64,000 bases of DNA, from the NCBI GenBank assembly GCA_947259885.1, contig CAMYNW010000012.1:74769-138768 (forward strand), in the 5' to 3' direction. The position numbers were made by a program, and so were the translations under genes. Shown piece after piece: positions 4,683 through 60,650 of this stretch. Under the pieces are notes generated by a model, which saw nothing but the letters and a program-made list of their open reading frames with translations, ran no database searches and was not told the DNA's origin. The DNA is from an uncultured Gammaproteobacteria bacterium (GTDB lineage Bacteria > Pseudomonadota > Gammaproteobacteria > Arenicellales > Poriferihabitantaceae). How positions within the stretch are numbered: the first letter of the stretch is position 1; each line of letters starts with the position of its first letter.

Positions 4683-5483
4683 TTGGCGTTATCAGCGACA
4701 ACAAATTTTTTTACCCAGGGATGGAGAGTATTTGAACCGGATCCCGCAATCGAATCCTGGACAAAATCGTGTCTTGGGTCATGCAGACGGGCGGTCAATA
4801 ACCCAGCCAACCTGCGGTGGCTGCGGCATGACGGCACCTGGTTCGCCGGCGTCAATGCACTCGATAATAATGAACGCGGCGAGGTCAACGGCAGCCCGCC
4901 TCTTAACGGAAAAGCGGTGCAGTTTTTATCCAGGCAATTGGACATTCAGCCGATCCGCTGGGATAAGGCACAGATTTCTGTGTGTTACCCAGGCTATCCG
5001 AGAGCTTCGGACGATGAACCAGAAGCCGCCTTTCGCTATCGCCTGAAACGCGACGCGGCCCATATTGATGGACTGTTGCGAATCGGACCTGAGAAGCGCA
5101 GATTCTTACGCGAGTACCATGGATTTATTCTGGGCATTCCAATGGTCGAGTTCAGCCATGACGCCTCCCCGTTAGTGGTGTGGGAAGGCTCCCATGAGAT
5201 CGCTCGTGATACGTTCAGTAACGTGCTTGATGCAAACACCCCGGACAGCTGGGAACAGATCGATTTGACCGAGATCTATCACGCGCTGCGTCGCAAAATA
5301 TTCGATCAATGCAAACGCGTCGAGATCGCGGTCAAACCAGGGCAGGTGTTTGTGGTGCACCGCCTGGCCCTGCATGGCATGGCGCCCTGGGGAGAAAATG
5401 CCAGCGCCGGCCCCGATGGCAGAATGATCTGCTATTTTCGTCCAGAGCTTGCAGACCCGGTTAAGTGGTTACAGGCCCCGTAA
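4683..5483 (+). CDS. Hypothetical protein, PhyH-like Fe(II)/2OG dioxygenase superfamily
   Basis: It has H-x-D (AAHIDG), a W-E-G-S-H element aligned with the V-P-G-S-H of PhyH proteins, and a distal His in HRLALHG. The start is TTG and there is no in-frame ATG near the 5' end, so the start is uncertain. Confidence 0.45.
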   Translation: MALSATTNFFTQGWRVFEPDPAIESWTKSCLGSCRRAVNNPANLRWLRHDGTWFAGVNALDNNERGEVNGSPPLNGKAVQFLSRQLDIQPIRWDKAQISVCYPGYPRASDDEPEAAFRYRLKRDAAHIDGLLRIGPEKRRFLREYHGFILGIPMVEFSHDASPLVVWEGSHEIARDTFSNVLDANTPDSWEQIDLTEIYHALRRKIFDQCKRVEIAVKPGQVFVVHRLALHGMAPWGENASAGPDGRMICYFRPELADPVKWLQAP

Positions 5484-50793: not shown

Positions 50794-52284
50794 CTAATCG
50801 CCCACCTCGAGGAAATCCAGGATGCGCTTTTCCATAAGATCATAAAAAGGATTCCACCGAAGACGAAGCATCGTACCAGCCGGGATCTGTGACACTCCGC
50901 GTTCGCCACGGAGTACGGCATTTCCGATTTGGATTCCCGGCGATTTTTCCGCTGTCTCGCCGCCATAGAGCGCATCCGTTTCGGGGAACGGCAGTGCCAC
51001 ATGGGATAGCGAATAGATTCCTTCAGGCCATTCTAGACCGGTTTCTTTAGTAGTGATTGTTATGCTACCTGCTTCTTTCGACCTTTCCACAATTCCCCGG
51101 CTCCCTCCATTTTCGTTCTCCAATACAGTAATCCGAAAGGGTAGCACCTTGTCCTCTTTCAGCTCATTTAACCCGGGTGTTGGATTCGGGTTGAAAACAG
51201 TCTCCATCGAATCCAGCCGATTGATATCAAACAGGACGAGTTCATGACCCTGGTCAGGCAACGAGTTAAATAAAACCTCGACCAGCGCCGGGGTGGAAAC
51301 TGTAGCGTCGACCACTGATTGAAATCCAAGCACGGGGGGGAAATCTTTCAACTCCTCCTTTTTATTAGCTTTTTCCAGTCTCTTGCTGATCTCGGATGTC
51401 AGCAGGTAAACCTGCCGCCCTGCGTTAAGCGCAAAAGATCCATATTTGTAGGGATCATATTCCGGTTGAATTGCATTCCACGCCAGCTTCTTTAGCCCTA
51501 AAACGTGACCCAGCCGACTTTGCCAGATCGCCAGTGCTGCTAATTTGGTAACTCCGATCGACGGCGATATCAGCACAATTTTTTCGACCCGCGGCAACTC
51601 GGAGTTTTCGATAACCGAAAGCGCATACTCGATTGCGAGTGCTCCCCCGTTCGAATAGCCGATGATCGAAATGGGGCCATTACCGATCCGTCCTTTTAAA
51701 TGGGCAACAGCAATTTTTACCGCCGCCGCCATATCTTCCCATTCAACATCGAGCAGCCCGGAGGGTGACGTACCGTGGCCAGGAATACGCAGGGCGATCG
51801 CAGCTGTTTTAGCATCCGCAATTTTCTCTCCCAGTGAGCGCATGCTATACGGTGAGTCCGACATTCCATGGAGCAAGAGGACCCCACGAGTTGGAGATTC
51901 TGGCTCAACTACCCATGTTCGATTCCAGTTCTTTGGCCAACGTTCGGGGTCACTCAAACTTCCGGCATAGTAGCGATTGATTTCACGCTTATCCCCTTCT
52001 TCTATCTTGTCGTTAACTTTCTCTCCTAATTCCTCAAACAGTCGATCTTCAAGTTCCAGATACCCGGAGAAGGTATGGATATTGGCCGAATTCGTAAATT
52101 CATGGTTGAGCCTCGCTTCGTGCCAGACCTTTAAATCTGGTCGTCCATTAAGAACAATTACGAAGGCAATAATTCCAGAAATTAGACCACCCAAGACAAT
52201 CATCGCCGCGATCTTCAATGTGCGAATTAGTAGCGCTTTGGCATATCTTCCTTTGATTGGTATCCAGTTAATGAGTGATTTCAT
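50794..52284 (-). CDS. Membrane-anchored alpha/beta hydrolase
   Basis: The ATG at 52284 (MKSLINW) precedes an N-terminal TM helix (IAAMIVLGGLISGIIAFVIVL). It has HG in LLLHGMSDSP and the nucleophile elbow GYSNGG. Confidence 0.65.
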   Translation of the reverse strand: MKSLINWIPIKGRYAKALLIRTLKIAAMIVLGGLISGIIAFVIVLNGRPDLKVWHEARLNHEFTNSANIHTFSGYLELEDRLFEELGEKVNDKIEEGDKREINRYYAGSLSDPERWPKNWNRTWVVEPESPTRGVLLLHGMSDSPYSMRSLGEKIADAKTAAIALRIPGHGTSPSGLLDVEWEDMAAAVKIAVAHLKGRIGNGPISIIGYSNGGALAIEYALSVIENSELPRVEKIVLISPSIGVTKLAALAIWQSRLGHVLGLKKLAWNAIQPEYDPYKYGSFALNAGRQVYLLTSEISKRLEKANKKEELKDFPPVLGFQSVVDATVSTPALVEVLFNSLPDQGHELVLFDINRLDSMETVFNPNPTPGLNELKEDKVLPFRITVLENENGGSRGIVERSKEAGSITITTKETGLEWPEGIYSLSHVALPFPETDALYGGETAEKSPGIQIGNAVLRGERGVSQIPAGTMLRLRWNPFYDLMEKRILDFLEVGD

Positions 52285-52451
52285 TTGGTTATTGTGGATG
52301 TCCACTGAACCAGTCAAGCACACGATTTCTTGACCCAATCCAATCTAGCCTTAACCACTGCTTGAAATTGATCCGCGACGATTTTAGTTTTACGTTGGGC
52401 TCATTCTTTTAGAATATAGCTTTAGGTTATTTCCAATACGATAAAGATCGT

Positions 52452-53072
52452 TTAATTCACTCGCTGAAGTACTACCCGCGATTCCGGTGAAACCGCGATT
52501 AACTGATCACCGTCCACCGAAAATTTGAAGTTATTAACATAAGTCTCACCGGTGTCTGGGTCCTGGCCCGTAATCACTATCGCGTCCGCAACGATACGAT
52601 ATTGCTCCACTGTTGTTTCGGCCTTACCATCTTTGTGTACTGCCATGGTGGTGAGCTTGCTGCTGGAAGGAAAATTGACCACCATCGAAGCGTATTCCGG
52701 GTAGGGATCTTCGGATACCAAGCTGACGACTTGCCAGGTGCTGCCTACAAACTGGTTAGTGACTGGCGATTTATAGGCCGTTTCCGGATTTTCAGTGACT
52801 TGTGCCTGGGAGCGAGCTTTTTGCTCAGCATCAGCCTGCGCCTCGGCCTTTTTTTTGTCGTCTTCATTACCCGTCAAATAACCAATTCCACCGCCAGCTA
52901 CCGCGCCTACCGCCGCACCCCCCAGGTCACCACCGATAATCCCGCCTGCCAGAGCGCCGATGCCGGCACCAATCCAACCCTTTTTTTTTGCCTCCGTCTG
53001 GGCATATATGGTTGCAGAAGGGATCGAAAGAACCAGGGCGATAAGGAGGCTCGCAGCGTATCTGTTATACAT
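52452..53072 (-). CDS. Secreted glycine-zipper protein
   Basis: It has a signal peptide (LLIALVLSIPSATIYAQ), a glycine-zipper segment GAGIGALAGGIIGGDLGGAAVGAVAGGGIG, a charged linker and a beta-rich C-terminal domain. Confidence 0.6.
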   Translation of the reverse strand: MYNRYAASLLIALVLSIPSATIYAQTEAKKKGWIGAGIGALAGGIIGGDLGGAAVGAVAGGGIGYLTGNEDDKKKAEAQADAEQKARSQAQVTENPETAYKSPVTNQFVGSTWQVVSLVSEDPYPEYASMVVNFPSSSKLTTMAVHKDGKAETTVEQYRIVADAIVITGQDPDTGETYVNNFKFSVDGDQLIAVSPESRVVLQRVN

Positions 53073-53439
53073 AAATGTCTCCTATAGAGGTTTTTGATAG
53101 AGCATTCGACGCGTCAAATATCATAAATGCTTTCGCTATCTAATGATTAAGCACAAGTCTGAAATTTAACCCACATGAACACAACGCGCAAATAGCTAAA
53201 GCAGCGCTGGATCAGCGACACACTTCGCATAATCGATACTCCTTGCGGCTGTCAGAATAAATATCGAATTTAATGGAGTGAATGACATACTTATTAAGAT
53301 CACAAATTTTATTCTGCCTTTGTTACTGGGGCTCCAGGGCCTCGCTCTGATAGCGGATGCAGTGCTTTTTTTCTCGAGCAGTAAAAGTTTGTATTAATTT
53401 CCGCCCTGATGTCATTAGGGTTCTAGAATCACATCAAGA

Positions 53440-54051
53440 CTAAGAAGGAGACTTCCCATCATCTTCCTCATCTTCCTCATCTTCCTCATCTTCTTCATCT
53501 TCTTCATCTTCCTCCCCACCATCTGACGCATCCTCATCATCAGGGTCGTCGACATCGCTGCGATCATCATCCATTGAATTATTATCATCGTCCAGATCAT
53601 CGAAGTCCGAGTCAGTGCGCGTGATCACGACGGGGCTAGCCTTACCGGAACCAGTATTGATCGTAATATCCCTCAAGGTGATGGTCTGGCCCGAAGCCAC
53701 TTGTCCTACTGGTAATATGGCAGTTCCCGAATCAGTCACGGTAAATGTGAGTACAAGATTTTCACTCGGTGCGACACTGGCAAGCTCAAAGCCACCAAAT
53801 TGATTGAGGGGGGTCGACTTGCCGCCACCGGTTACCGTCACATTCTCAAATATAGCCGCACTCGAGAACAGAGCTTTGGCCTGACCGGCAGATGTCTGGC
53901 CATTAACGCTGACAACGTTGCCCTTTACAAAGCTGATCCCGGTGCCACCTATGCCGGAACCGCCACCTGAAATAGCGTCTCCACCCCCGCCGCACGATGC
54001 GGTAAGTAAGGCTATAACCAGCACAACAACGTGTTTCCAGGACATTGACAT
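53440..54051 (-). CDS. Lipoprotein with a beta-sandwich-like domain and a roughly 55-aa poly-acidic C-terminal tail
   Basis: It has a signal peptide plus lipobox (LLTASC), a Gly-rich linker and a beta-rich core. The tail is DSDFDDLDDDNNSMDDDRSDVDDPDDEDASDGGEEDEEDEEDEEDEEDEEDD. Confidence 0.6.
   Translation of the reverse strand: MSMSWKHVVVLVIALLTASCGGGGDAISGGGSGIGGTGISFVKGNVVSVNGQTSAGQAKALFSSAAIFENVTVTGGGKSTPLNQFGGFELASVAPSENLVLTFTVTDSGTAILPVGQVASGQTITLRDITINTGSGKASPVVITRTDSDFDDLDDDNNSMDDDRSDVDDPDDEDASDGGEEDEEDEEDEEDEEDEEDDGKSPS
53461..53514. repeat. 9-bp in-frame microsatellite (ATCTTCYTC x6) encoding the (EED/EDE)n tract
   Basis: Six contiguous 9-nt units make up the tract: three ATCTTCCTC, two ATCTTCTTC and one ATCTTCCTC. 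They lie inside the 3' end of the gene at 53440-54051. Confidence 0.85.
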
Positions 54052-54091
54052 GATTCCGAGTCAAAGAATATTAGATCAAACTAAACTATAT

Positions 54092-54108
54092 GTGGGAATT
54101 GATCCCAC
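54092..54108. promoter_or_regulatory. Perfect 17-bp palindrome GTGGGA-ATTGA-TCCCAC (putative operator)
   Basis: It is centred at 54100, exactly 49 nt from both divergent ATGs (54051 and 54149). The same arms and spacing recur at 55117-55133. Confidence 0.55.
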
Positions 54109-54148
54109 GTCAAATTTAGTGGTAATGTATTCATAGAAGCGAGGTCAG

Positions 54149-54994
54149 ATGAATACAGAATCGGATAACAGCGCGTCAGGCGCCCCTACTCCCGCCCTCA
54201 CCCGCGCCGTCAAGCAGCTGCTGCGGCCGCTGGTAGGGCTGTTGCTGGATAATGGCCTGACCTACAGCTGGCTGACCAAGGTGCTGAAGATGATCTATGT
54301 AGACGTCGCCGAATCGGAGTTTGGACTCGAACAAAAACCTCAGACCGATAGTCGCATCAGCTTGTTGACCGGTGTGCACCGCAAGGATGTCAGAAAGCTG
54401 CGAAGCAGTGACAAGGAGACGTTCGATCCGCCGACGAGTATTTTTATTGGTGCCCAACTGGTTGCGATCTGGACCTCCGAAGAACGTTTTCTCGACACTT
54501 CTGGTAAACCGGCTCCCCTGCCCAGACTGAGCAGTAGCCTGGAAAATGACGATGGGTCCAGTTTCGAAAATTTGGTGACCTTGGTCAGCAAAGACATTCG
54601 TCCCAGGGCGATCCTGGATGAATGGCTAAGGCTCGGTGCAGTTTCTATGGACCAGGACGACCGTGTATCTCTCGAAATTGACGCTTTCATTCCGGCCAAG
54701 GGCTTCGATGAAAAAATGTTCTACCTCGGTAAAAATGTGCACGATCACATGGCCGCTGCGCGCGCTAATGTGCAAAGTACCCACCCACCGTTTCTGGAAC
54801 GCAGTGTTTATTACGATCAGCTTTCTGATCAATCCGTGGAAGAATTGGCACAGCTTTCCGAGAAAGCAGGCATGCTCCTTCTAAAGCGGCTGAACAAACG
54901 AGCGCTGCAACTTCAGAAACGAGATATAAAATCAGAAAAGACAGGTAAACGGATGAATTTTGGCCTGTATTTCTTTAGTGATAAAGATAGTTAA
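54149..54994 (+). CDS. Hypothetical protein with a helix-turn-helix-like segment (candidate local regulator)
   Basis: 281 aa and soluble. The segment TDSRISLLTGVHRKDVRKL resembles an HTH recognition unit. I recognise no enzyme motif. It is flanked on both sides by the shared palindrome. Confidence 0.4.
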   Translation: MNTESDNSASGAPTPALTRAVKQLLRPLVGLLLDNGLTYSWLTKVLKMIYVDVAESEFGLEQKPQTDSRISLLTGVHRKDVRKLRSSDKETFDPPTSIFIGAQLVAIWTSEERFLDTSGKPAPLPRLSSSLENDDGSSFENLVTLVSKDIRPRAILDEWLRLGAVSMDQDDRVSLEIDAFIPAKGFDEKMFYLGKNVHDHMAAARANVQSTHPPFLERSVYYDQLSDQSVEELAQLSEKAGMLLLKRLNKRALQLQKRDIKSEKTGKRMNFGLYFFSDKDS

Positions 54995-55116
54995 GTCTTA
55001 TTACTCGTAACCGGCCCTGGCCTGGGCCAGCACCTCTTTCCTATTCACCCACCCCTTTTAATCGCCGCGGCCCAGCGGCTTGACGAGAAAATTTATTCCA
55101 CGTATATTTAGTTTGT

Positions 55117-55133
55117 GTGGGATTTTTTCCCAC
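55117..55133. promoter_or_regulatory. Perfect 17-bp palindrome GTGGGA-TTTTT-TCCCAC (second copy of the putative operator)
   Basis: It is centred 41 nt upstream of the ATG at 55166. The flanks are also similar to the first copy (TGTGGGA...TCCCACRTCA). Confidence 0.55.
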
Positions 55134-55165
55134 ATCATTAACTTATAACTTTAAAGGGGGCTCCC

Positions 55166-55828
55166 ATGCAACTTAACTTTATCCAGCGCGCCGTCTCGGC
55201 GCTCATCATTACACTTTTTTCCCTGATCCTTGTAGTTGGATGCAGTGGAAGCAGTGACTCAACCACTGGAAGTGGTGGTGCGCTTGCAAGTAAATCCAGT
55301 ATTTCCGGTAATGTCAGTAGTGGCGTCTCTTTGTATCAGCAAGAACTGCCTGACGGCGGTTTATTGGCGGCGATCTCACGTATCGTGATACCGCCGGCAT
55401 TTGCCGCTGCGGTAGCGGGTGTCGAAGTGCAGTTACTGCTAAACGGTGCGGTTGTAGACAGTCAGATCACTGATAGCTCTGGAAATTTTTTGTTTAGTAA
55501 CCTGCCGTCTGGCAGCTACTCTCTTCGTTTAATGATGGATGGACAAAGTGTGGGAGAGTCGCCGGCGATATCCCTCGATCCAAATACCAAAACTGAGCTT
55601 GAGCTGATGCTTGACGGTAGCCTGATCAACATGAAGGTAGACGCCTCTGACGATCAGATTTCGGGTAATGTCGAGTCCAATGACTCCGATAACAGTCCTG
55701 ATGACATGCAGAGTGACGATGATTCCGAGGATAATGATTCGGATGATGAATCCGAAGATGATGACTCTGAAGACGATAATTCTGAAGATGACAACTCTAG
55801 TGACAACGATAAACCCACTGTCAGTTAA
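55166..55828 (+). CDS. Lipoprotein with a carboxypeptidase-regulatory-like beta-sandwich and a poly-acidic C-terminal tail
   Basis: It has the lipobox LVVGC and a Ser/Gly linker. The pattern VEVQLLLNGAVVDSQITDSSGNFLFSNLPSGSYSLRL is typical of CarboxypepD_reg-like domains. The tail is DDQISGNVESNDSDNSPDDMQSDDDSEDNDSDDESEDDDSEDDNSEDDNSSDND. Confidence 0.65.
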   Translation: MQLNFIQRAVSALIITLFSLILVVGCSGSSDSTTGSGGALASKSSISGNVSSGVSLYQQELPDGGLLAAISRIVIPPAFAAAVAGVEVQLLLNGAVVDSQITDSSGNFLFSNLPSGSYSLRLMMDGQSVGESPAISLDPNTKTELELMLDGSLINMKVDASDDQISGNVESNDSDNSPDDMQSDDDSEDNDSDDESEDDDSEDDNSEDDNSSDNDKPTVS

Positions 55829-55851
55829 TCGATCACGATAGAGCTCTAGCA

Positions 55852-56658
55852 GTGAAGCAAAGCGTCGCACTGTCCGACCAGGGCCGTAATGGCTTACTCA
55901 GTTCGGCGGTGTTTCTATTGGACTGGAGGCATCGCCCCCTTTTGATTATTTTCCTTGGTTGTCTTAGCATAGAAATCGCTCTGGTTATTCTCGATTTGTC
56001 GATAAACTGGTATAAATGGAGTGAAACCAGTGCGATTAGAAGGCTATTTAACATTACCAGGGAGGACGGACTTGCATCACTTTTTGCTGTACTGCAAACC
56101 GTCGCGGTAGCCTCAGTCCTATGGTTGACCTGGTTTTTGACGCGAGCTGCCAAAGCAGAAAAGCGTAATCAAACCGGATGGCTAATAGTGGCATTGTTCC
56201 TCAGCTATATTGCGATAGATGATGGCGCTATGGTTCATGAACGCATTGGTACGGCATTCCAGCAAAACAATGGTGGAATCAGCCTAGTGAGTTATGGGTG
56301 GCAGTATGTGATGGGCCCGATATTTGCCCTCATGGGCATCATTATGTTCGGTTTTTTGTGGAGGCAGGGAAATAACGCGATACGGCGTGACTGGCTGGTA
56401 ATAGCGTTTGCGTGCATGGGGACCGCGATATTGCTGGATTTTTTTGAGGGCATGGAAAATGGGTACCAGGTTCTGGTGAACATGACCGGATGGCGAACTA
56501 AAACCATTACCCATTTTGCAAAATCTTTCGAGGAGTTTCTGGAAATGCTTGGGATGAGTATTTTTTTGGTATTATTTCTTCATCACTTCGGATATCTCGC
56601 AGGGCGATTAGAGATTCGCATCGTGGGTGGTAAGATTTCCGTGACAAAAAACAAGTAA
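55852..56658 (+). CDS. Hypothetical polytopic inner-membrane protein
   Basis: 268 aa with a GTG start and no upstream ATG. It has about 6-7 hydrophobic spans and lies 23 nt after the acidic lipoprotein gene. Confidence 0.5.
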   Translation: MKQSVALSDQGRNGLLSSAVFLLDWRHRPLLIIFLGCLSIEIALVILDLSINWYKWSETSAIRRLFNITREDGLASLFAVLQTVAVASVLWLTWFLTRAAKAEKRNQTGWLIVALFLSYIAIDDGAMVHERIGTAFQQNNGGISLVSYGWQYVMGPIFALMGIIMFGFLWRQGNNAIRRDWLVIAFACMGTAILLDFFEGMENGYQVLVNMTGWRTKTITHFAKSFEEFLEMLGMSIFLVLFLHHFGYLAGRLEIRIVGGKISVTKNK

Positions 56659-56677: not shown

Positions 56678-57538
56678 TTAGTCGAGAAACAATTTCGACC
56701 ATTTTTTGAAATCCTCGGCACGGGTAAACTCATCAATAAACCGACTATCCGGGACACCATCAAGATCAGCCGGCGCGCTCCCCTGCCGAAGTGCTTTTAA
56801 CGTTTTATAAACCGCCTGCATGCCGGCCATGATCGGCTGATGACCCTGAAGACTGATCCGCACTCCCCTGTCTGCTAAGGAAGTAAGGTCCATCATATCG
56901 TGGGAAGCACCGCCTAGAATTAATGGCAATCGACAGACTTCCGCGACTTGATCCAGCTGCTCCGCCTGCTTAATCCCGATCAGAAAAATCGCGTCCACAC
57001 CTGTCTCCTGGTATGCGCGAATTCTTTCGATGGCATCGTCAACGCCGTTGATTGATACTGCACTGGTGCGGGCCGCAATGACCAGGGAGGAATCCTGTCG
57101 CCCCGCGACAGCGGCCTTCATTTTTCCGACCCCTTCCTCTACAGAAATCAATCGGCTTTTACCCTCGGTGCCAAATGGCCACGGCAAATCAGTATCCTCG
57201 ATAGACAAAGCGGATACGCCTGCGGTCTCAAGCTCTTCAACCGTTCTCTTCACATTCAGTGCATTGCCATAGCCGTGATCGGCGTCGACCAGAAGCGGCA
57301 AATTGCAGGCTCTGTTAATCCTGTATGCCTGCTCGGCAAACTCGCTTAAGGTCAAAACGATCAGGTCAGGATCGCCCAGTACCGTCAGTGACGCCACCGA
57401 GCCGGCGAACATTCCGGCTTCGAAACCTAACGACTCGGCCATGCGCGCCGAAACAGGATCAAAAACTGAACCCGGGTGGATACACTGGTTACGAGCCAGT
57501 TGCTGTCTAAACTTTTCGCGTCTGTTATTCCAATTCAT
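56678..57538 (-). CDS. Isocitrate lyase / PEP mutase superfamily protein (oxaloacetate decarboxylase / 2-methylisocitrate lyase-like)
   Basis: 286 aa with the superfamily motifs PGSVFDPVSARMAE, LLVDADHGYGNALN and SIEDT. Confidence 0.75.
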   Translation of the reverse strand: MNWNNRREKFRQQLARNQCIHPGSVFDPVSARMAESLGFEAGMFAGSVASLTVLGDPDLIVLTLSEFAEQAYRINRACNLPLLVDADHGYGNALNVKRTVEELETAGVSALSIEDTDLPWPFGTEGKSRLISVEEGVGKMKAAVAGRQDSSLVIAARTSAVSINGVDDAIERIRAYQETGVDAIFLIGIKQAEQLDQVAEVCRLPLILGGASHDMMDLTSLADRGVRISLQGHQPIMAGMQAVYKTLKALRQGSAPADLDGVPDSRFIDEFTRAEDFKKWSKLFLD

Positions 57539-57592
57539 CGGCCTACCTTTTCAAAAATATTTTTCCACTCGGCCAAAGTATAAACCAGACGT

Positions 57593-58525
57593 CTAACTTG
57601 CGGTCGCAAGACACCCAGTCATTCCGCTGACAAGCCCCTGCATTAAGCGAAACCACATTTCCCGGCCGGGTTTAATCTCGACGCCTAGTGGGTCGAGCAT
57701 TCCAATTCGAACATCAGTGTCTTCGACCAGAATGTTTACAGCATCCGAGCTGAATTGAGGTTCGGTAAATATACAGTTTACGTCATCGGCCTGCAGCCGA
57801 TGCCGTAATTCTCGGAGGTGTTTTGCTCCGGGTGGTCTTTCGGGATCGATCGTGACCGATGCGGAGGCGGTCAGTCCGAAATCGTGTTCAAAGTACTGGT
57901 AGGCGTCATGAAATACCATGAACTTTAAATCTCTTATTGGCGCAAGTTCAGCCTCTGCCTTTGCTCGCCAGCCCGCTATCTCTGCGTTGAGCGCCTGGGC
58001 GTTTCGGTGATAGTGCGGTGCGTTGGATCGGTCATGCTCGATCAGCCATTGCGCGACGGTATTAACGATGATTGATGCATTTATTGATGACAGCCATATA
58101 TGAGGATCGACAGTTGTTTGACTACCGGGTTGAACCCCGTCGTCATCTTTTTGATCCTGGTCACCGTGCTCATGCATCGCGCTGGCCGGTCGAATCTGGC
58201 GCAGCCGCATTCCCTCTGCCGCCAGCAGAGATATTTTACGATCCGGCTCCAGCCCATCAAGAGCCTTGACCAGACTCCCTTCCAGTGGCGGTCCGACCCA
58301 TACCACCAGATCGGCAGAGAGCAAGGACCGCACCGTTGAAGGAGGAAGGCTGCCAGAATGGGGCGACCGATTGGACTTTAGCAGCAGCTCAGCGCTGGCG
58401 ACACCATGCATCACGCCCTGCACTAACGAATGCACCGGCGCAATAGAAACGGCCACTCGCGGCGCAGCATTGAGAATGGTAAATGGCGCCACGACCAACA
58501 GTATTGTCAGGAGAAATCGTGTCAA
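57593..58525 (-). CDS. znuA: Zinc ABC transporter periplasmic binding protein
   Basis: It has a cluster-9 SBP layout, the His/Asp-rich loop HEHGDQDQKDDDG, DPHIW and FHDAYQYF. It is divergent from zur-znuCB. The start is TTG and uncertain. Confidence 0.85.
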   Translation of the reverse strand: MTRFLLTILLVVAPFTILNAAPRVAVSIAPVHSLVQGVMHGVASAELLLKSNRSPHSGSLPPSTVRSLLSADLVVWVGPPLEGSLVKALDGLEPDRKISLLAAEGMRLRQIRPASAMHEHGDQDQKDDDGVQPGSQTTVDPHIWLSSINASIIVNTVAQWLIEHDRSNAPHYHRNAQALNAEIAGWRAKAEAELAPIRDLKFMVFHDAYQYFEHDFGLTASASVTIDPERPPGAKHLRELRHRLQADDVNCIFTEPQFSSDAVNILVEDTDVRIGMLDPLGVEIKPGREMWFRLMQGLVSGMTGCLATAS

Positions 58526-58556
58526 TGAGAGGTGGCGAAAGACTATTTGGAAATTG

Positions 58557-58571
58557 TGTTATATTATAACA
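58557..58571. promoter_or_regulatory. Zur box (TGTTATA-T-TATAACA)
   Basis: It is a perfect 7-1-7 palindrome of the TGTTATAnTATAACA type in the znuA / zur divergent intergenic region. Confidence 0.75.
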
Positions 58572-58601
58572 TAATAATTTTAATTCTCTGCCGACCATTC
58601 C

Positions 58602-59087
58602 ATGAGCATCGATAGCATTGCAGGACCGTTCCAACCCGGACATAACCATAAAGTCTGTATTCGGGATGCGATGAATATTGCGGAACAATTGTGTCAGTCT
58701 AAAGATCTGCGTCTGACAAAAATACGTAAGCGTGTTCTTGAGCTGGTATGGACTGGACACGAGCCCGCGACGGCTTATCAGCTTCTCAAGAAATTACGGG
58801 CCGAGAGAGAAAACGCGGAACCCCCGACGGTCTACCGAGCACTCGATTTTCTGGTCGAACACAATCTGGTGCATCGAATCGAGTCGCTCAACGCATTTAT
58901 AGGCTGCGATCATCCAGAGAGCGAACATGTCAGCCAGTTCTTGATCTGTTCTCACTGCAATCAGGTTGCGGAACTGGATGATTCAGTGACGATTAACAAT
59001 GCGGTATCCGAAGAAGCAAACAGACTTGGCTTTAGAGTTTCAGATCAAACTGTTGAAATAATGGGGCTTTGTGCAGCATGTCAGTAG
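58602..59087 (+). CDS. zur: Zinc uptake regulator (Fur family)
   Basis: 161 aa with a winged-helix region (TVYRALDFLVEHNLVHRI) and CxxC pairs (CSHC, CAAC). It lies directly upstream of znuC. Confidence 0.85.
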   Translation: MSIDSIAGPFQPGHNHKVCIRDAMNIAEQLCQSKDLRLTKIRKRVLELVWTGHEPATAYQLLKKLRAERENAEPPTVYRALDFLVEHNLVHRIESLNAFIGCDHPESEHVSQFLICSHCNQVAELDDSVTINNAVSEEANRLGFRVSDQTVEIMGLCAACQ

Positions 59088-59851
59088 ACGACCTTAATCA
59101 GGTAAAGACAGCGGAAATATTGCTTGAGCTGAGCGACATATCGGTCGCCCACGATCAGACACCAATTATCGAACATATTGATCTGACCCTTCATCGAGGT
59201 GAGATCGTCACTGTAATTGGACCCAATGGTGCCGGTAAAAGCACCCTGATCAAAACCGCCTTGGGGATCATCCGCCCTGACCAAGGAAGAGTGAAGCGGC
59301 TGGGGTCATTATCCGTCGGCTATGTCCCACAAACTGTAACGCTGGATTCCGCGCTGCCGTTGAAGGTATTACGCTTTTTGAGATTGTCATCTAATGCGGG
59401 CCGTGACGAACTGATACACGCTTTGTCTCAGGTGGGCGCTGACGGATCGCTCGATGCATCCATGCATATTCTTTCCAGCGGCGAACTGCGTCGCGTCCTG
59501 CTTGCCCGGGCATTGTTGAAAAAACCGGACATCCTGATTTTGGATGAACCTACAGCGGGCGTGGATATTACCGGACAGGCAGCGCTATATCACTTGATTC
59601 AACAGATCCGCGATCAGTATCAATGCGGGGTGTTACTGGTATCCCATGATCTGCATATCGTCATGGCTGCAACCGACCGAGTGTTCTGCCTTAACCGGCA
59701 TCTGTGTTGTTCCGGTGCCCCGGAACAGGTGCGAGAACACCCCGAATATCTGGCGATATTTGGACCACAGGCGCCGGCTGAAATAGGCATCTATCGACAC
59801 CATCATGATCACGACCATGACCTGCACGGAGATGTTTGCGACTATGGATGA
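59078..59851 (+). CDS. znuC: Zinc ABC transporter ATPase
   Basis: It has Walker A GPNGAGKST, the signature LSSGE and Walker B ILILDEP, plus a His-rich C-terminus HHHDHDHDLHGD. Its ATG at 59078 overlaps the zur stop. Confidence 0.88.
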   Translation: MSVDDLNQVKTAEILLELSDISVAHDQTPIIEHIDLTLHRGEIVTVIGPNGAGKSTLIKTALGIIRPDQGRVKRLGSLSVGYVPQTVTLDSALPLKVLRFLRLSSNAGRDELIHALSQVGADGSLDASMHILSSGELRRVLLARALLKKPDILILDEPTAGVDITGQAALYHLIQQIRDQYQCGVLLVSHDLHIVMAATDRVFCLNRHLCCSGAPEQVREHPEYLAIFGPQAPAEIGIYRHHHDHDHDLHGDVCDYG

Positions 59852-60650
59852 GTTTCTGCTGCGTGCCCTGATCGGTGGCATCCTGGTGGCGTTGGTGAGT
59901 GCACCGCTTGGTTGCCTGGTGGTATGGCAGCGTATGGCCTATTTCGGCTCTACACTTTCCCATGCGGCGTTACTCGGCATTGCTCTGGGTCTGCTGTTGG
60001 AACTAGATGTGCGCCTGACGATACTGCTGGTTTCTGTGTTGATCGCTTTACTGCTGATGGTCATTCAGCGCTTTCGCACCCTCAGCAGTGACACAATATT
60101 GGGCATACTGGCCCATGCTTCCCTTGCGTTTGGTTTGCTGGCGCTGTCGATGATGCCCACTCTGCGTGTCGATCTGATGGCATATCTGTTTGGCGATATA
60201 CTGACTATTAACTGGCAGGATATTCGGTGGATAGCGGGCGGTGGAATCCTGATTACCGTTGTATTGATAAAAATCTGGAAGCCACTCCTTTCAACTATTA
60301 TCCATGCCGACCTCGCTGGCGTCGACGGCTACAACCGTGAGCGGTTACAACTTGTTTTTCTGCTGTTGTTGAGTATCGCGGTGGCGGTATCGATGCAGGT
60401 CGTGGGGCTGCTTTTGATCGTATCGCTGCTGATCATTCCCGCTGCTACAGCGCGCATGTTCTCCAGCTCACCGGAACAAATGTTGGGTTGGGCCGCCGCT
60501 GTGGGGGTGCTCGCGGTGATCAGCGGTTTAGGCATGTCGATGACGCTGGACACCCCGGCCGGACCTTCTATCGTCGCCTGTGGCAGCGTGTTCTTCTTTT
60601 TAAGTCTAATAGGATCGAGTGTCGGCGCTTTCGGCACAAATAGCCACTGA
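59844..60650 (+). CDS. znuB: Zinc ABC transporter permease
   Basis: 268 aa from the ATG at 59844, which overlaps the znuC stop by 8 nt. It is polytopic with a ZnuB-type sequence (MDEFLLRALIGG...). Confidence 0.88.
   Translation: MDEFLLRALIGGILVALVSAPLGCLVVWQRMAYFGSTLSHAALLGIALGLLLELDVRLTILLVSVLIALLLMVIQRFRTLSSDTILGILAHASLAFGLLALSMMPTLRVDLMAYLFGDILTINWQDIRWIAGGGILITVVLIKIWKPLLSTIIHADLAGVDGYNRERLQLVFLLLLSIAVAVSMQVVGLLLIVSLLIIPAATARMFSSSPEQMLGWAAAVGVLAVISGLGMSMTLDTPAGPSIVACGSVFFFLSLIGSSVGAFGTNSH

Follow-up and report, generated by a model that had tools for sequence, protein, structure and literature searches.

A conserved gammaproteobacterial envelope module associates a DUF6502 protein and a shared palindromic operator with acidic-tailed lipoproteins

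The window analysed here is a 64,000-nt stretch of the genome of an uncultured Gammaproteobacteria bacterium of the order Arenicellales (assembly GCA_947259885.1, contig CAMYNW010000012.1, positions 74,769 to 138,768), in which an initial annotation made from the sequence had pointed to an envelope locus of five genes. This locus is genuine, conserved and previously uncharacterised, and it corresponds to a conserved four-gene envelope module. It is composed of lipoA (53440..54051, minus strand), whose product is a predicted lipoprotein of 203 amino acids (aa); of a gene encoding a cytoplasmic protein of 281 aa that belongs to the DUF6502 family (54149..54994, plus strand); of lipoB (55166..55828, plus strand), encoding a second predicted lipoprotein of 220 aa; and of memb (55852..56658, plus strand), which encodes an inner-membrane protein of 268 aa. 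All five open reading frames (ORFs) initially described, the fifth being a glycine-zipper gene located next to lipoA (see below), were confirmed at their coordinates.

With DUF6502 as an anchor, the arrangement lipoA (minus), DUF6502 (plus), lipoB (plus) was found in at least 14 distinct gammaproteobacterial loci (L001, L002, L009, L012, L013, L014, L016, L018, L020, L021, L022, L091, L093 and L215/L216), down to ca. 56% identity in DUF6502, and memb directly follows lipoB in L001, L013, L014, L022, L091, L093, L215 and L216. Conservation of the neighbourhood, proposed earlier as a check, is thus borne out by the co-localisation of these genes. A rearranged locus (L092) has the module separated into two pairs, lipoB-memb and lipoA/DUF6502. 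In the window, lipoB and memb are probably co-transcribed because memb begins 24 nt after lipoB, and a terminator-like hairpin detected by consensus scan only (56681..56699, plus strand), which lies between memb and a convergent gene resembling phosphoenolpyruvate (PEP) mutase, probably marks the 3' boundary of the module.

The intergenic region separating lipoA from the DUF6502 gene is 97 bp long and contains a perfect 17-bp palindrome, GTGGGA-ATTGA-TCCCAC (GTGGGAATTGATCCCAC; 54092..54108, operator O1), located 57 bp upstream of the DUF6502 start codon (ATG). A second copy (GTGGGATTTTTTCCCAC; 55117..55133, operator O2) occurs 33 bp upstream of the lipoB ATG. The perfect form GTGGGA-N5-TCCCAC is found exactly twice in the 64 kb, both times at this locus, for 0.07 occurrences expected by chance. 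The element (T)ATGTGGGA-N5-(T/A)CCCACGTCAA has been kept in 14 of 16 related intergenic regions, with surroundings that are not conserved, and 14 gamma-clade loci possess a second operator copy at the O2 position. When up to two mismatches are allowed, 75 of 89 loci belonging to the gamma-, beta-, alpha- and deltaproteobacteria have a site in the 250 bp that precede DUF6502, as compared to ca. 1% of 2,701 control segments, and the GTGGG and CCCAC cores are invariably separated by 7 nt. In L092, where the module is rearranged, both pairs are preceded by an operator copy of their own, one at 5225 before lipoB-memb and the other 69 bp upstream of DUF6502.

The position of both operators relative to the predicted promoters is suggestive of their role. 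O1 almost exactly fills the 17-nt spacer of a predicted sigma-70 promoter of lipoA (read on the minus strand from 54113 down to 54085; -35 TTGACG, -10 TATAGT; 10/12 matches in a consensus scan), so that on the plus strand it is flanked by ACTATA and CGTCAA, the -10 and -35 hexamers of lipoA, which are conserved together with the palindrome in 14 of the 16 related regions. The predicted sigma-70 promoter of lipoB-memb (TTGACG, 17 nt, TATATT; 55080..55108, plus strand; also 10/12 matches) ends 9 nt before O2, and a candidate DUF6502 promoter identified by the same type of scan (54045-54072) would give rise to transcription passing through O1. By their geometry these would be classical repressor positions, and because of the location of O1 and O2 relative to these promoters DUF6502 is probably a repressor.

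A scan based on the motif alone (TGTGGGA-N5-TCCCACGTCAA, 18 specified bases), performed on one genome for each of ca. 185,000 species and for which ca. 17 chance matches were expected, returned at least 120 matching stretches. Among the matches listed, 92 of 119 new loci carry a DUF6502 gene within the same 8 kb, ca. 80 have the motif 39-300 bp upstream of DUF6502 and in the same orientation, and the 22 loci that offer a sufficient downstream flank but no DUF6502 approximate the chance expectation. The operator is specific to DUF6502 loci. In at least two orphan loci, L161 and L213, the motif immediately precedes a gene for a small secreted protein whose tail is an acidic repeat; at these alphaproteobacterial sites (L161:786-1347 and L213:3314-3942, with tails EAAEEAEDAAREAAEEE… and EARSAADDAEDEARSAADD…, respectively), DUF6502 is absent from the same 8 kb, and they may be distal members of the regulon.

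Other identities considered for the palindrome were discarded. Changes in its arms are mostly uncompensated (116 lost, 23 G·T and 12 compensated) and asymmetric half-sites are common, beta-proteobacterial sites often reading GTGTGA…TCCCAC. This marks the element as a site in DNA and not as an RNA hairpin or a terminator. The CRP consensus is TGTGA-N6-TCACA, and a CRP site was rejected on spacing since the variant GTGTGA-N5-TCACAC gives a 15-bp core, TGTGA-N5-TCACA. Finally, a promoter of the extracytoplasmic-function (ECF) type was rejected because GGGAA and CGTCAA are ca. 9 nt apart, too close for -35 and -10 elements.

The 281-aa protein, initially recognised by a helix-turn-helix (HTH)-like segment, was identified as a member of the DUF6502 family (PF20112; E=2.8e-34, 118.6 bits for a cutoff of 27, profile positions 3-264 of 268), and all 32 homologues that were aligned match the family model. 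Identity across classes amounts to 45-55%, with 48 invariant columns over the 32 sequences, and the protein has no signal peptide. The family occurs in at least 537 species-representative genomes, its carriers including nitrifiers (Nitrosomonas, Nitrotoga), iron oxidisers (Gallionellaceae), Comamonadaceae, Acetobacteraceae and sponge symbionts. In the AlphaFold model, an HTH is indeed formed by residues 67-86 (SRISLLTG-V-HRKDVRKLR; the canonical HTH is placed at residues 66-86, 54344-54406, in the sequence), of which G75, R78 and R85 are invariant, and a second HTH followed by a beta-hairpin wing, a winged-helix-like unit, is predicted at residues 139-175 before a series of long C-terminal helices. 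The C-terminal half displays two invariant motifs, NxHDH and ERSVYYD. No HTH family was matched above threshold in Pfam or NCBIfam, HTH_54 or HTH_29 being weakly matched by only 2 of the 32 members, and sequence comparison to the PDB returned nothing meaningful for DUF6502 or for one DUF5666 partner (see below). The weak top fold matches are nearly all to winged HTH regulators or sigma domains, namely PcaR (IclR family), MarR, MepR, FadR and CRP.

Functionally, DUF6502 would class with the winged HTH regulators, since a palindromic operator that is both specific and conserved was found in the promoter region of its own gene, and from it we infer binding. The invariance of G75, R78 and R85 parallels that of the operator half-site. 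Because the HTH/winged-helix model and the operator data combine in this way, DUF6502 is most likely the cognate DNA-binding (auto)regulator of the palindrome; it forms the conserved core of the system and is very probably its regulator. In ca. 10% of the loci, a histidine kinase and/or a sigma-54-dependent response regulator is encoded beside DUF6502 (L092:8410-11514, L003:3306-4748, L036:1929-3413, L045:1885-3294). A two-component system or sigma-54 regulator was rejected as a core partner on account of this low frequency; these proteins may represent a second regulatory input in some lineages.

The architecture described earlier for the two lipoproteins, that is a lipobox signal peptide, a Gly/Ser linker, a beta domain and an acidic tail, was recovered on both ORFs. 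The LipoA signal peptide ends in the lipobox L-T-A-S-C20 (…LLTAS-C20-GGGG; Cys20 codon 53992-53994) and is followed by a G-rich linker with an SGIGGTGI motif (GIGGTGI at 53935-53955), then by a beta-rich domain. Cys, SG(I/V)GGTG and GN columns are conserved across 15 LipoA orthologues, with the Cys invariant in all 15. In LipoB, the lipobox L-V-V-G-C26 (…LVVG-C26-SGSS; Cys26 codon 55241-55243) precedes an S/G linker, and residues 81-149 match CarboxypepD_reg (PF13620; 36.6 bits for a cutoff of 32.3), a family with which its orthologues are also annotated. The lipobox is present in 32 of 34 members of the LipoA/B family, and LipoA and LipoB are predicted to be lipidated at Cys20 and Cys26, respectively. 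By the E. coli rule, under which the residue that follows the lipobox Cys (position +2) must not be Asp, both would be sorted to the outer membrane, LipoA having Gly and LipoB having Ser there; this rule is not validated for Arenicellales. One LipoA orthologue (P0249) differs from the others in having Asp at +2 (C-D-G-G), for which the E. coli rule would predict inner-membrane retention.

The shared architecture is not accompanied by pairwise similarity (BLASTP E=7.6), and LipoA had no match at all in the Pfam search, hence none to CarboxypepD_reg; their common fold emerges from profile-profile comparison only. Once signal peptides, linkers and tails had been removed, the profiles of the two orthologue sets aligned over 63 columns (HHalign probability 94.8%, E=5e-8), because of which LipoA and LipoB are considered distant paralogues with the same architecture. 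A word-indexed homology search with the LipoA core recovered only 10 relatives, the family evolving too fast for this method, and comparison of LipoA and LipoB to PDB sequences gave nothing meaningful, matches to V8 protease and Hsp70 being due to low complexity or spurious. In the Candidatus Spongiihabitans locus (L009:8992-10077), a third LipoA/B paralogue is found whose tail is not poly-acidic and is made of three copies of a His-, Cys- and Glu-rich repeat of ca. 45 aa (HLPETGDQKTLFVTEPEYIAEHKVHGDIIGECKPFGEHEFPIC), reminiscent of a metal-binding sequence.

The acidic tails are somewhat longer than the 45-55 residues first reported. That of LipoA comprises 57 aa (residues 147-203; 53443-53613), with 65% D+E, 79% D+E+S+N and a net charge of -35, and its DNA is a 9-nt tandem repeat (53459-53514). 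The LipoB tail comprises 60 aa made of D, S, E and N (55646-55825), with 47% D+E, 82% D+E+S+N and a net charge of -27, and is encoded by 12- and 15-nt tandem repeats (55729-55791). Long ORFs also run across these tail-coding repeats in other frames or on the opposite strand (53415-53600 and 55529-55870, both on the minus strand; e.g. …KMKKMKKMRKMRKMRKM…); these result from the low complexity of the DNA and do not represent genes.

Within the clade, ca. 28 of 34 proteins have a strongly acidic tail (net charge -14 to -45), as do 10 out of 10 further database homologues of LipoA/B. The tail sequence has wholly turned over and repeat lengths have changed while the acidic composition has been kept, so the expectation that acidic tails would be conserved was upheld, and the polyanionic charge appears to be under selection in this clade. 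Among the results that the initial annotation named as damaging were orthologues lacking the acidic tails or never co-localised; these were looked for, and the orthologues proved to be co-localised and, for the most part, to retain acidic tails. The non-acidic exceptions in the clade are the (GNS)n tail of L010, the (NG)n tail of L021 and one G/P/N-rich paralogue. L010 and L021, in which it is the LipoA tail that is N/G-rich, are also devoid of the canonical palindrome. These two loci share an alternative intergenic element, TTGGTGTTAATTTAG (L010:6885-7001 and L021:4871-4968), and L010 carries MacAB-like efflux genes where lipoB would stand.

Across the wider family, the next gene on the same strand in 54 of 86 DUF6502 loci encodes a secreted protein with a low-complexity C-terminal tail. 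In these partner proteins (loci L024-L090, e.g. L028:5831-7243 and L003:6797-8725), the signal peptide is followed by 3-12 copies of a ca. 12-residue G(I/T)GGTG repeat and by 2-4 DUF5666 domains, and in 26 beta-proteobacterial loci a DUF3187-like outer-membrane protein (OMP) gene comes next. Their tails vary with lineage: Rhodocyclales, Thiobacillus and Hydrogenophilales have (PEK)n or (EK)n, Comamonadaceae have (SG)n, Gallionellaceae and Nitrosomonas have tails rich in His, Asp and Arg, and Myxococcota have tails rich in Pro and Arg. LipoA and LipoB replace these DUF5666 partners in the Arenicellales-like clade. Homology of the LipoA/B domain with DUF5666 was not detected: no DUF5666 match was found in either protein by Pfam, and HHalign comparison with 58 DUF5666 partners aligned only the GIGGTGI motif (probability 17%). 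Taken over the whole family, the conserved property is a very hydrophilic, disordered C-terminal tail, of which polyanionic charge is the clade-specific form. Because of this diversity, cation binding is plausible for the clade and not as the common denominator of the family; based on composition (net charges of -35 and -27), we consider cation binding by the acidic tails as a tentative proposal.

The fourth component, described earlier as a polytopic membrane protein, was modelled with six long membrane helices and a C-terminal beta-hairpin (predicted local distance difference test, pLDDT, 92.2; predicted template modelling score, pTM, 0.86). Its family displays invariant TRED, DDGxxxHER, DFxEG and HFxKSxEEFxEM motifs and 16 invariant charged or polar residues (D48, N52, R70, E71, D72, D123, D124, H129, E130, R131, D196, E199, H221, E227, E228 and E231). 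Because both termini are rich in Lys and Arg (K+R = 4 and 5 for the N- and C-terminus), the positive-inside rule suggests an N-in/C-in topology, which would place the invariant residues at the periplasmic face. Memb had no family above threshold in Pfam or NCBIfam and no match in a PDB sequence search; comparison of its model to PDB folds with Foldseek gave a best template modelling (TM) score of 0.35 with E of at least 0.22, and the model would represent a new fold. The family totals 5,707 representatives of 50% clusters at E≤1e-3, for which there is no Pfam model. Through tandem duplication or fusion, some members reach 458-528 aa (P0251, P0252, P0340), and these fused homologues bring no additional domain. 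Since the family also occurs without DUF6502, Memb is an accessory partner and not a core component.

The surroundings of the module are less conserved. Between an EamA gene and lipoA, the interval 50794-53072 contains genes for a membrane-anchored alpha/beta-hydrolase (514 aa) and for the secreted glycine-zipper protein (206 aa; 52452-53072), which matches Gly-zipper_Omp (PF13488; 27.3 bits for a Pfam cutoff of 25) and has a signal of the signal-peptidase-I type with no lipobox. Both genes are absent in every relative examined, and the 64-kb scan found no operator at either of them; they were consequently rejected as members of the module. In L215 and L216, which share 77-79% DUF6502 identity with the window, the EamA gene directly abuts lipoA. 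The interval 50794-53072 is therefore a lineage-specific insertion and the module comprises four genes, not the five initially grouped together. On the other side (56678-60650), the PEP-mutase/methylisocitrate-lyase-like gene (168.8 bits, well under the cutoff of 354 for the prpB equivalog) precedes a zinc-uptake cluster of divergent arrangement, zur-znuA / znuC-znuB. A conserved link to either was rejected because this synteny is restricted to close relatives.

The gene anatomy and its conservation are observed directly; the interpretation that we favour builds on them as follows. DUF6502 would bind the 17-bp palindrome GTG(G/T)GA-N5-TCCCAC at O1 and O2 and repress lipoA, its own gene and lipoB-memb until released by some signal, perhaps sensed by its C-terminal helical half with the NxHDH and ERSVYYD motifs. 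Upon expression, LipoA and LipoB would be exported by the Sec pathway, lipidated at their respective Cys and sorted to the outer membrane, where a flexible Gly/Ser tether would carry a transthyretin-like beta-sandwich ending in a free, disordered polyanionic tail of 57-60 residues. Such tails could form, in the periplasm or on the surface, a dense brush of strongly hydrated carboxylates with a low affinity but a high capacity for divalent cations (Ca2+, Mg2+, metals), which it would capture or buffer. Memb, with its Asp/Glu/His clusters predicted to face the periplasm, would be likely to act in the membrane as a partner of the lipoproteins or for the same ions. We give this reading as a whole, a DUF6502-regulated envelope module whose polyanionic-tailed lipoproteins handle cations together with Memb, a probability of about 0.5; its regulatory half taken separately appears rather likely.

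Several observations weigh against this interpretation. On the regulatory side, the DUF6502 model is of moderate quality (pLDDT 73.7) and its comparison to PDB folds with Foldseek gave no significant match (best E=0.47); the promoters predicted by consensus scan are no more frequent than in shuffled sequence, which bears on the choice between repression and activation; and the palindrome might be the site of a different factor that invariably accompanies DUF6502. On the envelope side, both the sorting of the lipoproteins and the topology of Memb rest on rules, memb is lacking from about half of the LipoA/B loci and exists without DUF6502 as well (e.g. in the Acidobacteriota locus L095), and nothing ties the locus to a specific ion, the adjoining zur-znu cluster being syntenic in close relatives only. 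The N/G-rich tails of L010 and L021 argue against cation binding within the clade itself, and the zwitterionic, neutral or basic partner tails seen across the family indicate that negative charge is not the property being conserved.

The main rival accepts the same regulated module and sees in the tails generic hydrophilic, disordered bristles serving as a steric or hydration brush, a spacer, a protectant against aggregation, desiccation or osmotic stress, or a periplasmic condensate, the negative charge of the clade being a lineage flavour and not the function. The varied chemistry of the low-complexity tails in 54 of 86 partners, from (PEK)n, (EK)n and (SG)n to D/R/H-rich and P/R-rich, together with the (GNS)n and (NG)n tails within the clade and the fact that tails change by repeat slippage with composition kept but not sequence, is what would be expected from such bristles. 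They account less well for the retention of negative charge in ca. 28/34 clade proteins and 10/10 homologues, which suggests selection on charge and not merely on disorder, for the classic metal ligands included in the His-, Asp- and Arg-rich tails of Gallionellaceae and Nitrosomonas, and for the invariant acidic/His cluster of Memb; we regard this explanation as a serious yet somewhat doubtful one. A broader alternative, which we put forward with reserve, is that DUF6502 founds an unrecognised family of proteobacterial regulators with a fixed 17-bp operator and a regulon that constitutes a new envelope system, in which hyper-hydrophilic tails set the ionic or hydration micro-environment of the periplasm or surface. 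Tuning by lineage would make these tails polyanionic in gammaproteobacteria of marine habitats, rich in His and Asp in oxidisers of iron and ammonia, and zwitterionic or neutral elsewhere; they would act together with Memb and its new fold here or with a small outer-membrane barrel in beta-proteobacteria.

Other explanations depart further from the favoured reading. If the palindrome were bound by another co-occurring regulator, DUF6502 could serve, for instance, as a signalling adaptor, a chaperone or an enzyme that modifies GGTG-motif proteins: its conservation (45-55% identity across classes, 48 invariant columns) is unusual for a transcription factor, it carries invariant His/Asp/Glu motifs outside the HTH, no HTH family is matched significantly, and a histidine kinase or sigma-54 response regulator is found nearby in L092 and in small clusters of 6 and 3 loci. 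We hold this to be rather unlikely, for DUF6502 is the sole gene constantly beside the motif (92/119 motif-only loci among the matches listed), whereas the kinase or response regulator is confined to ca. 10% of loci, and DUF6502 has a canonical HTH signature whose invariance parallels that of the half-site and, having no signal peptide, would be cytoplasmic as transcription factors are. The lipoproteins might instead be surface-exposed and act as adhesins, matrix components or templates for mineral nucleation and not as periplasmic ion buffers. The beta domain of LipoB weakly resembles SdrD B-repeats (28.1 bits, below the cutoff of 29.7; PDB 10ps_A, E=0.012), Sdr adhesins likewise have Ser-Asp repeats, the D/S-rich tails are reminiscent of acidic proteins that associate with minerals, members of the clade live in the sea or with sponges (e.g. 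Ca. Spongiihabitans) and the OMP-like gene that follows the partner gene in 26 beta-proteobacterial loci could serve surface export. The gamma-clade loci, however, contain no OMP gene or known gene for surface-lipoprotein export, the tail ends freely at the C-terminus instead of forming a stalk that joins the anchor to a binding domain, and Pfam and NCBIfam searches found no adhesin-type ligand-binding domain, which makes this role quite improbable. Finally, the slippage-prone short tandem repeats that encode the tails would be compatible with an absence of any coherent system, in which the genes would stand side by side by chance and repeat expansion would have produced the tails neutrally. 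This is hardly credible given that gene order and orientation are kept in at least 14 loci down to ca. 56% DUF6502 identity, that one operator is common to both transcription units and is retained in L092 before each of its two separated pairs, and that the tails are in frame with a conserved composition in more than 40 orthologues.

Should the favoured reading hold, DUF6502 would gain a concrete role as a DNA-binding regulator with a defined operator and a regulon of secreted proteins with low-complexity tails, and three families of "hypothetical proteins" would become an experimentally tractable system. If the tails tune the ion chemistry or hydration of the envelope, they would add to the envelope physiology of Gram-negative bacteria a layer that is widespread yet has gone unrecognised, of relevance to metal handling, biomineralisation and life in seawater with its high Ca and Mg content. 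In addition, Memb brings a large family (5,707 cluster representatives) with a confidently predicted fold, no solved relative and no Pfam model.

The initial annotation knew of no described bacterial system with this gene set, and our searches, which retrieved no family with an assigned function, no related solved structure and no paper, agree with that view. Profile searches of the five proteins against Pfam and NCBIfam found only DUF6502, CarboxypepD_reg and Gly-zipper, with no enzyme or transporter family. The literature searched contained no functional study of DUF6502, its operator, DUF3187, "GIGGTG" or acidic-tail lipoproteins, and no mention of the G(I/T)GGTG repeat or of the partner tails; DUF5666 appeared in omics tables only, and its association with DUF6502 had no functional study. 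Three of the four protein families of the module have no characterised member, so that a function of an altogether new category may be involved.

Among known systems, a partial likeness exists with several. SlyB/Pcp-type glycine-zipper OMPs resemble only the product of the gene at 52452-53072, which is a neighbour and not a component. Long, disordered Asp/Glu runs are carried by membrane-associated or compartment-resident proteins such as calsequestrin, in its C-terminal tail, and the magnetosome proteins Mms6 and MamJ; no homology links these to LipoA or LipoB, the likeness is an analogy of composition, and the function of the DUF6502-associated family as a whole cannot depend on negative charge. 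As in staphylococcal Sdr/Clf adhesins, a prealbumin/CnaB-like beta-sandwich is followed by a long Asp/Ser-rich region and there is a weak resemblance to SdrD B. The host is Gram-negative, however, the anchor is an N-terminal lipid in place of a C-terminal LPXTG, no ligand-binding A domain is found and the acidic region is a free C-terminal tail instead of a wall-spanning stalk; the SdrD_B score (28.1 bits) stays below 29.7, the tail is not an array of SD dipeptides and LPXTG is lacking.

The closest relatives are the DUF6502/DUF5666/DUF3187-like loci, in which, as here, DUF6502 with the same upstream operator precedes a secreted G(I/T)GGTG protein with a low-complexity tail. In contrast to the DUF5666 (PF18914) loci, the partners in the window are two lipoproteins with a CarboxypepD_reg-type beta-sandwich, one of them divergently transcribed, a six-helix inner-membrane protein is found where those loci have an OMP, and the tails are polyanionic. 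Regarding regulation, the module recalls MarR-, IclR- and ArsR-type repressors by its small cytoplasmic HTH protein, by a palindrome that overlaps -35 and -10 elements in a divergent intergenic region, and by probable autoregulation combined with control of adjacent genes. DUF6502 differs from these repressors in having no sequence or significant structural membership in their families, in its larger size (281 aa), in its two HTH-like units and in its long helical C-terminal half. What is new here is the probable assignment of a 17-bp operator to DUF6502, in what would be a locally autoregulated HTH repressor with an envelope regulon.

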